The position numbers and the translations under genes are program-made. DNA of 64,000 nucleotides. It comes from an uncultured Candidatus Saccharibacteria bacterium. Lineage in GTDB: Bacteria; Patescibacteriota; Saccharimonadia; Saccharimonadales; JACDBH01. The DNA lies in NCBI GenBank assembly GCA_965231105.1, contig OZ246417.1:229013-293012 (forward strand). Reading direction: 5' to 3'. The number at the start of each line of letters is the position of its first letter. The first letter of the stretch is position 1. The notes beneath the pieces were generated by a model. The model was not told the origin of the DNA. It worked only from the letters and a program-made list of their open reading frames with translations, and did no database searches. Shown here one piece after another: positions 6,716 to 11,632 of this stretch.

Positions 6716-6785
6716 GTCAGTGATTTCCTTTTCACTTCAATGTTTGTTGCTTATCCTATCGACCGTTGAATAAGCTGATTACGCT

Positions 6786-6821
6786 AAAACAAAAACGTCC
6801 TTGCGGATTAGGCAAAGACGT
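6786..6821 (-). terminator. Intrinsic terminator/attenuator in the rplJ leader, also 3' of the small-gene operon
   Basis: On the minus-strand RNA a 10-bp stem (ACGUCUUUGC / GCAAGGACGU, one G-U pair) with a 7-nt loop is followed by UUUUUGUUUU. A TATAAT -10 lies upstream at 6902..6907. Confidence 0.55.
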
Positions 6822-6901
6822 TAATAATGAACAAAAAGTATAAGATTGTTCACCTCGGTAGCATTCTTAAATCCTTTAGAGGGATCGCTACTGTCTTTGG
6901 T

Positions 6902-6907
6902 AATCAG
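6902..6907 (-). promoter_or_regulatory. Candidate -10 element (TATAAT) for the rplJL transcript
   Basis: A perfect TATAAT sits on the minus strand just after the stop of the upstream small gene. The -35 is weak. Confidence 0.25.
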
Positions 6908-6937
6908 AAAAATTATACGTTAACAGGGGTGCTTCTG

Positions 6938-7186
6938 TCAATCTCCAAATGGAATATCCTTAGGAAAATCTGGCCCACTTGAGAAATCATGCATATCGTT
7001 TAAAGGCGCAGTTTCGAACTCAGTGACCACATCATGTCGAACGGGTATGTATTGGGCAACAGAAGGTGGTACGGGAAAGCGTCTTCCCATCCGCTGAAGC
7101 TGTTCAAGTCGCTCAGAAGTGGTCTCAGGGCCAGTCCCAATATCTGTGGGTGCACTCCAGTATCTTTGAAAGTGAAATCCTTCCAT
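6938..7186 (-). CDS. Hypothetical small protein (82 aa), third gene of a tandem trio
   Basis: The ORF has an AAGGAG RBS 9 nt upstream of the ATG, lies 4 nt after the preceding gene and is followed by a terminator. Confidence 0.5.
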   Translation of the reverse strand: MEGFHFQRYWSAPTDIGTGPETTSERLEQLQRMGRRFPVPPSVAQYIPVRHDVVTEFETAPLNDMHDFSSGPDFPKDIPFGD

Positions 7187-7190
7187 GAGC

Positions 7191-7439
7191 TTACCATCTC
7201 CTTGTTAATTCATTTAGTACTACTGCAGGGTCAATCGCATGGCTCCGATGAACTGCGGCAAATTCTGTTGTAGATGCCACTGCGGTAGAAGCGACTACAT
7301 GAGTTACCTCTTCTACTCGTTGTGCTTCTACGGCTGGATGTAGTCTTCCGTCTCTAAGGTCCGATACGGGTCCACGGCCCTGTCTGTGGGCTTCGGCATT
7401 AACTTCTCCTGGTTGTAATGGTAGTTCGAAAGGGGTCAT
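7191..7439 (-). CDS. Hypothetical small protein (82 aa; trimmed from the 119-aa ORF-track call)
   Basis: An internal ATG at 7439 is preceded by AAGGAGA. The longer 7191..7550 version would overlap the upstream gene by 92 nt in another frame. Confidence 0.45.
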   Translation of the reverse strand: MTPFELPLQPGEVNAEAHRQGRGPVSDLRDGRLHPAVEAQRVEEVTHVVASTAVASTTEFAAVHRSHAIDPAVVLNELTRRW

Positions 7440-7458: not shown

Positions 7459-7707
7459 TTATACTGTCTCTCTGACTGACTGGATTTCGGTCTCAAAGTC
7501 GGCGCTCGAAAGTCCGCTTTGACTTGCTTCAGCTGCTTTTCGCCACTCATCGGTAAGGCCGTCGTATGCGGCCAATATCACAGCGGCAACCGCTACAGCT
7601 GTTTCGCTCATCGTTAACTTATTTTCGGGTCTCCAGTTTCGGTCTGCTTCTGGCATATGACCATGTGGCGTACTGACAGCTGGACAACCTTGGACCTCGC
7701 AACTCAT
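7459..7707 (-). CDS. Hypothetical small protein (82 aa), first gene of the trio
   Basis: An AAGGAA RBS sits 8-9 nt upstream of the ATG. The N-terminus reads CEVQGCPAVSTPHGH, with His/Cys that could bind metal. Confidence 0.5.
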   Translation of the reverse strand: MSCEVQGCPAVSTPHGHMPEADRNWRPENKLTMSETAVAVAAVILAAYDGLTDEWRKAAEASQSGLSSADFETEIQSVRETV

Positions 7708-7728
7708 ATCGTATTATTCCTTAAAATT

Positions 7729-7818
7729 AAAAAAACTTCACGAGTGGAGTGAAGCTTTCTTATGAGTGATTGGTTGTGCTGCGTCTTAGTTTGGCTTCAC
7801 TCCATAAGCAGCACAACC
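7729..7818 (-). promoter_or_regulatory. Structured 5' leader with an attenuator-like intrinsic terminator plus competing antiterminator/pseudoknot helices, upstream of the small-gene trio
   Basis: On the minus RNA, helix B' (7818-7808) pairs with B (7782-7772) over 11 bp. Helix A' (7803-7794) pairs with A (7755-7746) over 10 bp. A terminator hairpin CUUCAC-7nt-GUGAAG (7754-7736) with a U7 tract (7735-7729) shares its 5' arm with A. The RBS and ATG follow about 20 nt downstream. Confidence 0.45.
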
Positions 7819-7914
7819 TCCATTGAGAATAATGAGGTCGAGCAGGCTTAAAAGAGTATTTTTTGCCATAACAGTATCGATACTACGCTCGCTAAAAAAT
7901 ATGTCAAGTTATTG

Positions 7915-7943
7915 TTGACATTCTATTGACATAAGCGTACATT
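7915..7943 (+). promoter_or_regulatory. Candidate sigma70-type promoter (TTGACA, 17 nt, TACATT) for the 8115 gene
   Basis: A consensus -35 is followed by a 17-nt spacer and a 4/6 -10. Confidence 0.35.
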
Positions 7944-8061
7944 CTTTATTGGTATGAAAACCTTCCAACAATTTTACGCTCCAATTTGTGTAAAGCGCGA
8001 CATGCTTTGCTACATGAACGCGCGCTAAAACTGCTGGAATAACGACGAATTAAGAGAAAAA

Positions 8062-8101
8062 GTAAAAACCGGATTCCAGCAAAAGGGGGATCCGGTTTTT
8101 T
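8062..8101 (+). terminator. Hairpin plus T-tract 14 nt upstream of a start codon; leader attenuator or bidirectional terminator
   Basis: The stem CCGGAT / ATCCGG has a 15-nt loop and is followed by TTTTTT, with AAAAA on the 5' side. An upstream 8-nt segment GCTGGAAT (8024-8031) is complementary to ATTCCAGC, which overlaps the hairpin. Confidence 0.45.
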
Positions 8102-8114
8102 AGTAAGGGAAGAT

Positions 8115-8630
8115 GTGATGAGTAAGGGATTACAAGTTTTACTTGAACGTAAAATAGAAAATGAACGAGTGCAATTGCCTATAGGTAAGCAACGCGCTGA
8201 AGAGCTGGTTCATGAAATAAATACGGAAGGTCCGCATGCACTGAGAGGGTTTAATTTAGGCATTGCAGCTGCCCGCGTGGTAGCCGGTGCGGCAGACCCT
8301 TTACAGGATGAACGTGGTCGACATGTTCCATTTATCGTGAATGCGGCCCAGAATGACACAGGACGTTTTTGGTTTAATCGTGGTCTTTTTCTTCTCGCTC
8401 CCCCACTCGATATTCATGTAGACATTGATGCACTCCGCGACGTCAATGATATTGATACGCTTGTTGCCTACCATGAAGGTGCAGGCCTCGGCCTTACCGC
8501 CCAGCGACTCAAAAGAGGTCCTATGCACGATTATGAAGATTTACCTCCTGAAGCGCAGGAGGTACTGTCCTTTACCGTAGTGCCTGACTCGGAATTGGCA
8601 AAGAGATCTATTTTAGCTGTTCGAGCTTAA
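8115..8630 (+). CDS. Hypothetical protein
   Basis: A 171-aa ORF with a GTG/ATG start preceded by an AAGGGA RBS. It converges on and overlaps the tmk-thyX 3' end by 23 nt. Confidence 0.45.
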   Translation: MMSKGLQVLLERKIENERVQLPIGKQRAEELVHEINTEGPHALRGFNLGIAAARVVAGAADPLQDERGRHVPFIVNAAQNDTGRFWFNRGLFLLAPPLDIHVDIDALRDVNDIDTLVAYHEGAGLGLTAQRLKRGPMHDYEDLPPEAQEVLSFTVVPDSELAKRSILAVRA

Positions 8631-10926
8631 ACTGCGTATAGCGTTCTGCAGCAAGACGGGTCAGCTCAGGATCTTCCCCCTGGTTCACGAATTTCATGCT
8701 TTCGGCTAATACGGGATGTACTTCGGCTACTCTTTCATGCATTGCGCGTACGAGTTTACGGTAGCCTGGATGGCCTTGGGGACTGGTGCGAAGCTCATGA
8801 AGATGGAAAGCTTCTCGTGCATTGTAGGTGATCTTCCAGCGCATGCGGTGTCCGAGTAGTGTGGCGTACTGGGCCTCAAGTTCAAATCCGGCTTCCTGGA
8901 GTTCACTATAAAGTGCGGCGCTTAAATCAAAACACTTTTCAAAGGTATCGCTTAAGCCTGCTGCTTCAACGAGTTCAGACATATCAAAACCATAACGAGG
9001 CGTGAGCTGTTGCCAATCAAAGGCGTCCACCATGCGATGTCTCTGAAGATCACGGAATATACCGTAATCGCAGAGAATATCCCAGCTATAGTGAGCTACT
9101 TCTAATGCTCTGCCTGGTTTATGGCGGCGATTTAAGCGCTCGCCCATATAAATGCGGAAGGCTTCGAGCTTTTGCTCATATGGCCACTTGCGTACTGCTT
9201 TTTCTATATCCTTCAGGCTCATATTACTAAATTCGTAGAGCATGTGCGGAAGAAGGTCGAGCTCGTTGCGCGGCCAGTAGTCGACGAGCTGAATATCCTC
9301 GTCAAGAGAACCTTGATTTTGGGGGAGTAAGGTTTCAGCCACATACTTTACGGCCTTTCGAGTACTTGCTCGGTATGCGACCATTGCACCGCCACGATCT
9401 GGTTTATCTGCTCGTTCGAGAAAGGTAGGAACGATCTTGCGTGCTTCTTGTAAAATATGATCGCCGACTGTTCGTGCTTCCTGAAGCTCATCGCTCTGAA
9501 GGTGCATAATCAAACTTTCGAGCGCCTGACCCGAGGCATAAATACCGACAGTCGCCTTCGTTGCAACCGGCAATACAGCACGAACGGCATCACATGCCTG
9601 GGCACGGGTCGCTCCGTTAAATGCAATGTCTCGTTCGGCTTCAGGTACTGAAGAGTGTTCTCGAACATGATCGGTCAGTTTGTGAACCATATCTGAGTAC
9701 AGATCAAAAATCTGATCCATAACGCTTTCATAACGCTTCTTAAGCTTGGTCGGAAGCCCTGTTGGAGTAAAGTAACGGTATTTCCCGTTTGCATCTTTCT
9801 GATCGAAGTAGATATACCGGGTGGACTGTTCAAGATAGGCTGCTAATCGCCCCCACTCAAGCTTCTTGGTAAGTAGATTACTCGCATTTTCGACAACGAG
9901 ATGTAGCCCTACCAGTTGCTGAACGGAGTCGTCTCCATAAGCAGTAATAACGCGTTGTAATAGCTTCTCGTCTTTCCCTACGGCACCGGCAAACTCATCG
10001 AGAATGGTGACGCGCATGTCATCACCCCGGCGAGAAAGTCGTGCCATAGCGGCAGCTACGGTTGTTGGGCTTAATTTGTCGCTGAACGCGTACACATCTC
10101 CTTCGGTATCGGTAACGGCAGCTTCCAGGAAAGCCTTACCCTCCGCAGTTACTTCATAAGCACCGCTTGGAAGCTTTTTAACGAACTGAGCGTCTTTCCC
10201 ATCGTCGATCTGTTCCATCTTTGCTTCGAGGACTTCTTTAATGGGAGTAGCATCAGCATTTACACTTGCCTGCGAAGATTCAACAGGACGGGTCATGGGA
10301 CGCATAGGTCCGCTGATGGCCTGCCATATCGCTTCATGTACCTTTTCAGGCGGTGCGTCAGCAGTAATGACGGGAAGCTGACGCTGCTTTGCTTCCCATA
10401 AGTATCCGGCACGAACTCGTTCAAGGAATGCCAAATCTAAGTTATCAAAACGCTCACCTGCACCTCGGCCTTTGGCTCGTTCTTTTAAGACGGAGGCGGG
10501 CGCATCAAGAACAAGTGTCACATCTGGCTGCATGTCGCCTACTGCAAAACTGATAATTGAATTGATAGTGTTGTAGTCTGGCACATCCCCACGGCCGTAA
10601 TACTGGATAGCGAGCGTTGTTAGATAGTTACGATCACAAATACAAATTACGCCGCTATCACGCGCTCTCCGAATAACTTCAAGAGATTGACTGCGTGCCG
10701 CGTTATATAAGAGCACTTCTGTACGGGTATTCATGGGGTAGCGAGGATCCTGCGTAAGCATACGGATAGCTCGTGCCGTTAGGTCACTCTGCGAATCAGG
10801 TTCTCTGAAAAGGCGGACGGGGTAGCCGGCGGCTTCTAATTTATGGGCGAGCATTTCTATTTGTGTGGTCTTACCTACACCTTCAGGACCCTCAATAACA
10901 ATATAGCGCCCTTTTTGCTCATTCAT
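8608..10926 (-). CDS. tmk: Fusion protein: N-terminal thymidylate kinase (Tmk) with a C-terminal tandem ThyX-like (flavin-dependent thymidylate synthase) region
   Basis: Residues 1-210 show the Tmk P-loop IVIEGPEGVGKTTQ and the DRN/lid region. The C-terminal ~560 aa contains two ThyX-like halves: a degenerate first half (...EWGR...EQSTRY) and a second half with an RHR motif and the C-terminal NAREAFHLHELRT motif. Confidence 0.75.
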   Translation of the reverse strand: MNEQKGRYIVIEGPEGVGKTTQIEMLAHKLEAAGYPVRLFREPDSQSDLTARAIRMLTQDPRYPMNTRTEVLLYNAARSQSLEVIRRARDSGVICICDRNYLTTLAIQYYGRGDVPDYNTINSIISFAVGDMQPDVTLVLDAPASVLKERAKGRGAGERFDNLDLAFLERVRAGYLWEAKQRQLPVITADAPPEKVHEAIWQAISGPMRPMTRPVESSQASVNADATPIKEVLEAKMEQIDDGKDAQFVKKLPSGAYEVTAEGKAFLEAAVTDTEGDVYAFSDKLSPTTVAAAMARLSRRGDDMRVTILDEFAGAVGKDEKLLQRVITAYGDDSVQQLVGLHLVVENASNLLTKKLEWGRLAAYLEQSTRYIYFDQKDANGKYRYFTPTGLPTKLKKRYESVMDQIFDLYSDMVHKLTDHVREHSSVPEAERDIAFNGATRAQACDAVRAVLPVATKATVGIYASGQALESLIMHLQSDELQEARTVGDHILQEARKIVPTFLERADKPDRGGAMVAYRASTRKAVKYVAETLLPQNQGSLDEDIQLVDYWPRNELDLLPHMLYEFSNMSLKDIEKAVRKWPYEQKLEAFRIYMGERLNRRHKPGRALEVAHYSWDILCDYGIFRDLQRHRMVDAFDWQQLTPRYGFDMSELVEAAGLSDTFEKCFDLSAALYSELQEAGFELEAQYATLLGHRMRWKITYNAREAFHLHELRTSPQGHPGYRKLVRAMHERVAEVHPVLAESMKFVNQGEDPELTRLAAERYTQFKLEQLK

Positions 10927-11632
10927 AACTTAAACCCTCAATCTTAGTAGGTAGTTCACGTTTATCCTTCCAAGCCTTTGGAAGCATCTGACTTGGTGAC
11001 CATGTGGCAATAATGGTTTTAAGATCAGTACCGGCCTGGTATTTGCCACTAAAGCCTTGGTCGCGCCCCGTTCCATAGTTGCCTTCTACTTCCCCGGTTG
11101 TATGGAATACAGCTTGTGCAATACGTTCACCAACCGGTAGGAGCACGGTTTCACGCTCATTGAGGTTATAGATTTCAAGCGTGAGACGGTTGATGTAGCC
11201 AGGATCTACCCAGCCAGCATCAAAACAGACTGCAACGCCATTACGACCCCAGCTCGAACGACTTTTAAGCTCATACGCACCGGGCGGTTTAATGCCAAAA
11301 AATTCGTGCGTGTGAGCGAGAATGCGCTCACCTGGTTTAAGGGCGATGACCGGGTGATCATCAGGGATGTTCTTAAGAGGTTTAATACCATTGAGCTCAC
11401 ACCATGCCTTATGTGGCATAGCCTGGTAGGGACCGTCAAAATAGCGCTCAACATCCTCGCGTTCAAATGGATTATAAATATTTCGTTCGTTCGTCCGCTC
11501 TACTCTAAAAAAGTAATAACCGAGTGTGACATCAAGGCTTGCGTGTGAGACGTGTTTTGGCTGGAACGGCGTGCAGACAATGTGGCCATCATCAATAGCC
11601 TGGCGAATTTGGATGTTGCTGTAAACCCCCAT
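10919..11632 (-). CDS. dcd: dCTP deaminase (dUTPase-superfamily), possibly a bifunctional dCTP deaminase/dUTPase
   Basis: The 237 aa align with E. coli Dcd across the N-terminus and the ...GWVDPGYINRLTLEIYN...GERIAQAVF... region. There is an 8-nt overlap with tmk-thyX. Confidence 0.75.
   Translation of the reverse strand: MGVYSNIQIRQAIDDGHIVCTPFQPKHVSHASLDVTLGYYFFRVERTNERNIYNPFEREDVERYFDGPYQAMPHKAWCELNGIKPLKNIPDDHPVIALKPGERILAHTHEFFGIKPPGAYELKSRSSWGRNGVAVCFDAGWVDPGYINRLTLEIYNLNERETVLLPVGERIAQAVFHTTGEVEGNYGTGRDQGFSGKYQAGTDLKTIIATWSPSQMLPKAWKDKRELPTKIEGLSYE

Follow-up and report, generated by a model that had tools for sequence, protein, structure and literature searches.

What kind of regulatory element lies between the tmk-thyX fusion gene and rplJ in Saccharibacteria, and what might it sense? 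This question is raised by a 64-kb window of contig OZ246417.1 (the whole stretch of 64,000 nucleotides that was analysed) from an uncultured Candidatus Saccharibacteria bacterium, where a sequence-only reading had described, on the minus strand upstream of three small genes, two interleaved helices and an intrinsic terminator with the logic of a riboswitch or attenuator. The helices and the terminator are conserved as RNA across about 28 Saccharibacteria sequences. The same RNA also carries a candidate sensor that the sequence-only reading had overlooked, a conserved leaderless open reading frame (ORF) of 27 codons which spans the upstream arms of both helices and ends just before the third arm. 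On this basis, we propose that the element is probably a ribosome-mediated (leader-peptide) transcription attenuator carried by a leaderless transcript. In the following, the arms of the upstream hairpin are called B' and B and those of the putative antiterminator A' and A. The parts of the element are:

7880-7907, minus strand: promoter-like site, TTGACA (7907-7902), 16-nucleotide (nt) spacer, TAGTAT (7885-7880); same layout in nearly all relatives
7786-7869, minus strand: leader ORF, 27 codons plus stop, leaderless or nearly so; frame open in 27 of 28 sequences, no Shine-Dalgarno (SD) sequence
7825-7836, minus strand: Leu/Ile codon run CTC ATT ATT CTC (residues L12-L15), candidate control codons; equivalent runs in relatives
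7808-7818, minus strand: B', 5' arm of the 11-bp hairpin; compensatory changes in 7 of 11 pairs
7794-7804, minus strand: A', putative antiterminator 5' arm, inside the B'/B loop; two reading frames among relatives
7772-7782, minus strand: B, 3' arm of the hairpin, covarying with B'; the leader stop codon (7788-7786) is 3 nt upstream
7745-7755, minus strand: A, putative antiterminator 3' arm, overlapping the terminator 5' arm by 5-10 nt in 25 of 25 sequences
7729-7754, minus strand: intrinsic terminator; hairpin and T-run in every relative, stem register dependent on lineage

Helix B'/B pairs GGTTGTGCTGC (7818-7808) with GCAGCACAACC (7782-7772) over 11 bp without mismatch, exactly as first read. 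Helix A'/A, formed by TGGAGTGAAGC (7804-7794) and GCTTCACTCCA (7755-7745), is also free of mismatches. It had been given as 10 bp with arms GGAGTGAAGC and GCTTCACTCC; this pairing is exact and one pair too short, an extra T at the start of A' and an extra A at the end of A making the eleventh pair. In the terminator, CTTCAC (7754-7749) is followed by a loop of 7 nt, GTGAAG (7741-7736) and seven T (7735-7729), and its 5' arm lies within A as had been claimed. The ribosome-binding site (RBS) AAGGAA (7722-7717) and the ATG at 7707 stand where the sequence-only reading had placed them; its distance of 20 nt from terminator to RBS was loose, as 7 nt separate the end of the U-tract from the RBS and 22 nt separate it from the ATG. 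Perfect inverted repeats of at least 11 bp spaced by at most 70 nt occur four times in the whole window, and two of these four are the interleaved helices. The arms succeed one another in the order B'-A'-B-A and both stems covary, which bears out the H-type pseudoknot topology proposed earlier. A' is not base-paired within B'/B and is placed in its 25-nt loop, so that the topology is a crossing one and differs from a textbook 1:2 anti-antiterminator. The folding tools used here handle nested structures only. With them, the 201-nt region gave a folding z-score of -3.3 against shuffles, and its minimum-energy fold consists of B'/B and the terminator lengthened by A/U pairs to 14 bp, -14.4 kcal/mol. 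The repeat count, the z-score and the covariation described below speak against a chance arrangement.

The element was then followed in relatives. Twenty-six related genomes, in which the tmk-thyX ... rplJ synteny is kept, were retrieved by an L10 scan, and 16 of them carry the element: 15 at E ≤ 2e-4 and a weak one (L006, E = 0.37). Twelve loci were found by nhmmer in the tmk-thyX/rplJ intergenic region, and a covariance model added L024, L018, L019 and the weak L006. A DNA-pattern scan of metagenomes returned 66 loci, of which 12 were true and 54 were coincidental matches in an unrelated, GC-rich and apparently coding repeated family, which may be a flavoprotein gene. The total set thus comprised 28 sequences (16 derived from genomes and 12 from metagenomes), and the main covariation and linker counts were made on an alignment of 25 sequences. 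The element always lies between the tmk-thyX fusion and rplJ, the 12 metagenome loci agreeing wherever flanks exist. Each locus holds one copy, and the covariance model detected no second copy in the 64-kb window or in the relatives' loci.

Both helices evolve as base-paired RNA. In the 25-sequence alignment, 94.7% of the cells in B'/B and A'/A are paired, compared to 30-46% when the partners are slid by 1-3 columns. Two-sided changes occur in 11 pairs (seven in B'/B and four at the flanks of A'/A) and amount to 60 compensated cells, and none of 500 column shuffles reached the observed covariation score. The sequence-only reading had made the standing of the element depend on compensatory changes in relatives; their presence in both helices favours it. 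B'/B is the most strongly covarying part: taken alone on a model-based alignment of 28 sequences, it has 93.5% of its cells paired and compensatory changes in 7 of its 11 pairs, with variants GGTTGTGCTGC/GCAGCACAACC, GGTCTTGTTGC/GCAATAAGACC, GGGCTGTGCTT/AAGCACAGCCC and GGTTATGTTGC/GCAACATAACC. RNAalifold, run unaided, returned A'/A as the consensus helix.

When the 25 sequences were folded one by one, each gave B'/B of at least 10 bp, A'/A complementarity uninterrupted over 9-16 bp (-15.6 to -27.4 kcal/mol) and, ahead of a T-run, a terminator hairpin of -8 to -16 kcal/mol. The register of the terminator stem differs between lineages (CTTCAC/GTGAAG, CGGCTTC/GAAGCCG, AAGCTTCGA/TCGAAGCTT or ACAGGCTTC/GGAGCCTGT). 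Despite these differences, 5-10 nt of the terminator 5' arm also belong to A in all 25 sequences, and the terminator 3' arm resembles part of A' throughout. The earlier claim that A'/A pairing is incompatible with the terminator thus holds throughout, the same nucleotides being contested in 25 of 25 sequences. A three-way contest of this kind, conserved among A', A and the terminator 3' arm, is what characterises an antiterminator/terminator switch.

The linkers between the arms vary in both sequence and length, L1 measuring 0-9 nt, L2 5-14 nt and L3 0-16 nt, and these lengths permit B'/B and A'/A to form together in most sequences. L2 is A-rich and L3 is A/C-rich. Invariant columns are confined to the helices, the leader codon block and the T-run, which, together with the variable linkers, argues against an aptamer. 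Of the two functions first put forward for this locus, the attenuator is therefore retained on the strength of the competition and the compensatory changes, while the riboswitch is not, since conserved unpaired nucleotides and an Rfam family are both lacking. The divergent L018 (3616-3737) and L019 (3113-3229) possess an extra small hairpin (GAGCG...CTCG/CGCGAG...CTCGC) between A' and B, which enlarges the B'/B loop.

What could operate such a switch is suggested by the leader ORF. It starts at the ATG at 7869, encodes the peptide MAKNTLLSLLDLIILNGGCAAYGVKPN in 27 codons, crosses B' and A', and ends at a stop codon (7788-7786) 3 nt before B. An equivalent ORF of 24-30 codons was found in 27 of the 28 sequences, and while frame 0 contains no stops, frames +1 and +2 each contain stops in 26 of 27 sequences. 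In the exception, L004 (4178-4260), a 1-nt deletion between the hydrophobic run and B' breaks the frame and leaves all RNA helices intact; the cause may be an error in sequencing or decay of the ORF, or else L004 may be able to do without the frame. The leader ATG follows the -10 hexamer by 5-10 nt (TTGACA-16/17-TAnnnT in nearly all relatives) and has no SD sequence, so that the mRNA is leaderless or nearly so. In the window, a perfect 12-bp palindrome, AGTATCGATACT (7873-7884, minus strand), overlaps both the -10 box and the predicted start of transcription; relatives do not conserve it, and it is either a window-specific operator or due to chance.

Conservation of the peptide itself is restricted to a run of 3-6 Leu/Ile/Val(/Met/Phe) codons. 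The N-terminal part is variable and its length shifts by whole codons. The residues encoded by B' vary freely (C/L/S/F, A/I/V/C) while B' covaries with B, and A' is read in two frames depending on the lineage, as G-V-K-P or G-L-K in one and as G-E-A or V-E-A in the other, from which it follows that A' is conserved as RNA and not as peptide. A double-glycine or SHP-type peptide precursor was considered and rejected, the glycine pair not being conserved and the C-terminus changing frame between lineages; the window has GG, as does a minority of relatives (L012, L065, L092), most others having RG, LG, TG, KG, SG or similar. The run itself occurs as LVIL, LVII, LIIL, VMIIL, ILIIL, FILL or LLLL, and its third codon ends exactly 9 nt before the invariant GG that opens B'. 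Its codons are nearly uniform: Leu is CTC in 39 of 42 cases, Val GTG in 20 of 25 and Ile ATT in 30 of 32, for a window-based genome usage of 18%, 17% and 59%, respectively. In the 16 genome-derived sequences alone, which are free of pattern-selection bias, Leu is CTC in about 27 of 29 cases (hand count). We looked for an extra helix that would explain the conservation of AACCUCGUGAUU. The start of B', the stretch after B and the downstream SD sequence were each found as possible partners in some sequences, none of them covaries, and inspection of the alignment showed that L020, L021 and L005 alter B' with AACCUC unchanged. As the codon block has no covarying partner, a constraint on the codons themselves, that is on particular tRNA isoacceptors, is the simplest reading.

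We infer from these features that the ORF is translated, that the signal is the supply of charged Leu/Ile/Val tRNA, and which of the two states is ON or OFF. Transcription would start at the AUG of the 24-30-codon ORF, or 1-4 nt before it, and yield a leaderless mRNA whose frame would lead a ribosome through B' and A' to a stop just before B. A ribosome keeping pace up to the end of the ORF would cover A' and part of B; A would then pair with the terminator 3' arm and transcription would end near 7729 (OFF). A ribosome lagging or stalled at the Leu (CUC), Val (GUG) and Ile (AUU) run, a few codons before B', would leave A' free. A'/A would pair once A is made, the terminator would be blocked, and polymerase would read through into the small ORFs and possibly on into the rplJL leader (ON). 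The hairpin B'/B might display A' for a pseudoknotted antiterminator, confine A' as an anti-antiterminator, or pace the ribosome or the polymerase. The decoding speed of the CUC/GUG/AUU run, reflecting charged Leu, Val and Ile tRNA, is likely the control signal, a point on which we are less confident than on the dependence on a ribosome.

In order to model the moment of choice, the transcript was truncated at the 3' boundary of A, taken as the decision point, and the footprint of a ribosome was masked. Without a ribosome, A'/A was predicted in 25 of 27 leaders, the divergent L019 and the weak L006 showing little or none. Once the P-site was within the last 8-10 codons, A'/A was lost in 25 of 25, and this simple model is thus in favour of the proposed geometry. 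Several leaders, including that of the window, also lose A'/A at some upstream footprint positions. Ribosome masks applied to the full-length leader at equilibrium always gave the terminator, and such folds cannot discriminate between models; the choice must consequently be kinetic, as in classical attenuators.

Beyond the element, the transcript would enter the following features:

7459-7722, minus strand: RBS AAGGAA and first downstream ORF p1 (7707-7459; 82 amino acids), an orphan
6938-7439, minus strand: downstream ORFs p2 (7439-7191) and p3 (7186-6938), 82 amino acids each; only p3 has recognisable counterparts
6780-6941, minus strand: rplJL unit, with consensus promoter (6941-6912) and L10 leader RF00557 (6918-6780); a separate unit that readthrough transcripts would enter

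The three ORFs show a gene-like GC1>GC2>GC3 pattern. Each is exactly 82 codons long, but they bear no similarity to one another, so that tandem paralogy was rejected. A search of a 5.8-billion-protein collection returned no homologues of p1 and p3 beyond the proteins themselves, and no counterparts of p1 or p2 were found in the relatives, where p3 has 66-amino-acid counterparts in L014 and L002. That the element precedes three small genes is thus true of the window and not general: the ORFs following it in relatives are other small proteins, mostly unrelated and without Pfam matches. Thirteen ORFs of unknown function, neighbouring or downstream, gave nothing significant in Pfam searches. An RBS and an ORF nevertheless follow the element within 10-25 nt in nearly all of 13 genome-derived loci (about 29 nt in L012). 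The next conserved downstream genes are rplJ and rplL. Their promoter is a perfect consensus (TTGACA-18-TATAAT), the TGA stop codon of p3 being part of its -35 hexamer, and their L10 leader scores 67.6 bits; RF00557 matches at 6780-6918 only, not at the element (7729-7869). No terminator was predicted between the small ORFs and the rplJ promoter.

Several observations weigh against a ribosome-read attenuator. The model depends on co-transcriptional kinetics or on the pseudoknot. In masked folds, a ribosome stalled on the run, which is 3-6 codons long, reaches at most the first 3 bp of B', so that the model does not account for the role of the most strongly covarying helix. The small ORFs downstream are orphans without link to Leu/Ile/Val metabolism. 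Saccharibacteria are generally regarded as devoid of amino-acid biosynthesis, so that the classical feedback rationale is missing. Finally, the 12 metagenome sequences were chosen by a pattern in which CTCGTGATT is fixed, which inflates the codon counts.

Other explanations were weighed as well. The leader might gauge translation capacity, the loading of 70S ribosomes on the leaderless AUG causing termination and scarce ribosomes or blocked initiation causing readthrough into the downstream genes and rplJL, with codon identity being secondary. A leaderless start would suit such a device, as would the prediction of A'/A in 25 of 27 leaders whenever A' is uncovered, the ribosome-free state included; rplJL, which has an L10 leader of its own, is the sole neighbour conserved downstream, and no predicted terminator separates the small ORFs from the rplJ promoter. 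We nevertheless find it unlikely: the fixed position of the hydrophobic run and the near-exclusive use of CTC, GTG and ATT would be left unexplained, and rplJL has its own perfect consensus promoter and autogenous leader. The run could also act as a peptide. The lack of synonymous variation in it speaks for a constraint at the level of codons or RNA, not for a purely peptide one, and it is reduced to generic Leu/Ile runs in the divergent members. It is quite improbable that a nascent L-V-I-(L/I)-x-x-G peptide stalls the ribosome from the exit tunnel upon a small molecule (antibiotic or metabolite), the P-site being near the invariant Gly at the start of B', so that B'/B is melted and A' freed in an erm-like manner. 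Hydrophobic erm leader motifs such as IFVI and IAVV may resemble the run, and the motif is conserved at fixed spacing together with the invariant Gly codon (GG at the start of B'), although this Gly is also explained as the G-C base of the helix. A P-site located 1-3 codons past the run masks B' and not A', and under nested folding no other stretch of the window's leader beyond the first five codons gives A'/A. There is no resistance gene among the downstream genes.

Conservation is far higher in the leader than in whatever lies between it and rplJL, and the leader has its own promoter and terminator, as would a gene in its own right, its product being either the terminated transcript of about 140 nt or the hydrophobic peptide of 27 amino acids. 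The helices would then serve stability or functions in trans, and downstream readthrough would be incidental. There is a precedent for trans-acting attenuator RNAs or peptides in S. meliloti trpL, for which attenuator-derived small RNAs and leader peptides with trans functions are reported (PMC6614838, PMC7298713). We give this explanation little credit, as two frames are used for the peptide's C-terminal third, which is hence not conserved as protein, a strict competition between A', A and terminator with co-varying registers would be purposeless for a plain terminator, and an RBS and ORF follow so closely in nearly all of the genome-derived loci. Least probable in our view is that a ligand or a protein, for instance a ribosomal protein, binds the B'/B hairpin and its loop and thus selects between antiterminator and terminator. 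Alternative helices are indeed the architecture of expression platforms, B'/B has the strongest covariation and ribosomal protein genes adjoin the element, but no unpaired nucleotides are conserved, L1-L3 vary, L2 having longer inserts in the divergent pair L018 and L019, no Rfam family matches, and the whole putative aptamer would lie inside a conserved ORF.

The leader-peptide attenuator that we favour belongs to a well-known class, and the element itself is outside any curated family. Rfam searches of the whole window at gathering thresholds and of the local region at E ≤ 10 gave no family match at the element. The best overlap on its minus strand, Phe_leader (RF01859), scores 22.5 bits (E = 0.68) against a gathering threshold of 55, so that the element is no member of this family and the resemblance is architectural only; on the plus strand, mir-67 scores 23.1 bits against 53, far under threshold. 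The enterobacterial leu leader has 28 amino acids with four Leu codons. Like it and the ilv, trp and pheA leaders, the element has a leader ORF of similar size (24-30 codons) with consecutive candidate control codons in a comparable position, and the position of the ribosome would select a 2:3-type antiterminator or a 3:4-type terminator. These enterobacterial leaders differ by their SD-led ORF, their strictly nested 1:2/2:3/3:4 chain and their biosynthetic operons. The closest described system, by analogy, appears to be the C. glutamicum ilvBNC attenuator, whose transcript starts one nucleotide before the start codon for its leader peptide IlvL (MTIIRLVVVTARRLP, 15 amino acids, with Ile/Val/Leu control codons) and forms anti-antiterminator, antiterminator and terminator hairpins (PMC11857589). 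Both have a leaderless short ORF with Ile/Val/Leu codons, which are candidate control codons in the Saccharibacteria element, and alternative hairpins before the first structural gene (PMC11857589). However, ilvBNC encodes branched-chain amino-acid biosynthesis whereas the Saccharibacteria element precedes orphan small ORFs and then rplJL, and the 5' arm of the ilvBNC antiterminator is shared with the upstream hairpin whereas here it is unpaired in the loop; a likeness in sequence is not expected.

The principle of sensing through a leaderless short ORF would be shared with the mycobacterial polycysteine short ORFs, in which the genes further down the operon are controlled by ribosome pausing at the codons of one amino acid (10.1101/834739). 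The mycobacterial ORFs unmask the downstream RBS and so act on translation, and they carry a Cys run, in contrast to the terminator with U-tract and the Leu/Ile/Val run found here. The B. subtilis rplJL leader, a transcription attenuator driven by the binding of L10(L12)4, likewise combines alternative structures upstream of rplJL with a hydrophobic leader peptide (PMC4538822). There, however, the peptide follows the terminator and has an SD sequence, and control is exerted by the protein. The homologue of this leader in the window is the separate RF00557 at 6780-6918, and the element, which has a promoter of its own, is a further unit lying about 0.8 kb upstream.

The genes preceding the element on the minus strand are nusG, an unknown ORF, rplK, a second unknown ORF, rplA, dcd and the tmk-thyX fusion (8608-10926). 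The latter encodes a 772-amino-acid thymidylate kinase fusion with two ThyX (Thy1) stretches and is preceded by the dCTP deaminase-like gene (region 8608-11632, minus strand). Through this insertion between rplA and rplJ the usual rplKAJL cluster is interrupted, an arrangement that the related Saccharibacteria loci share. The ORF of ribosomal protein L1 (11780-12739, minus strand) has 319 amino acids with the L1 domain only at residues 122-310; about 120 residues may extend the protein at its N-terminus, or the listed start may be too far upstream. Divergent from the element, an ORF of 171 amino acids without Pfam match (8115-8630, plus strand) overlaps the end of tmk-thyX by 23 nt in a convergent arrangement. 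Homologues with 32-39% identity occupy the corresponding position in L004 and L045, and the ORF is therefore probably a real gene. A strong 14-bp hairpin, AAAAACCGGATTCC...GGGATCCGGTTTTT, at 8064-8100 (region 7915-8125) is flanked by A-runs and T-runs on both strands and looks like a bidirectional terminator. On the plus strand, it falls in the putative 5' untranslated region of the 171-amino-acid ORF, about 15 nt before its RBS and downstream of a promoter-like site at 7915-7943. It could be a second attenuator-like leader, or a terminator insulating the element from upstream transcription of the minus strand.

Bacteria belonging to the candidate phyla radiation (CPR) have tiny genomes and are generally described as host-dependent for amino acids, and little has been reported on their gene regulation. 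In the literature searched, neither transcription attenuation nor control by leader peptides was reported for CPR bacteria, and this attenuator is apparently undescribed for the Saccharibacteria phylum. A ribosome-read attenuator supported by covariation would give this group a regulatory device that is concrete and open to testing. The element suggests that leader-peptide attenuation on leaderless transcripts, known from Actinobacteria, has uses beyond amino-acid biosynthesis, and its topology, with an antiterminator arm in a hairpin loop, departs from the textbook 1:2/2:3/3:4 chain. In a more ambitious and rather unlikely version, the leaderless ORF would gauge charged Leu/Ile/Val tRNA or free 70S ribosomes and, on starvation, switch on a fast-evolving cassette of orphan small proteins, possibly host-interaction factors, while feeding the ribosomal stalk operon, all by means of a pseudoknotted antiterminator with a loop-displayed 5' arm; the terminated RNA or the peptide might in addition act in trans. 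If the attenuator is as proposed, the orphan small genes would be marked as controlled by starvation or translation stress, which would open a route to their function.

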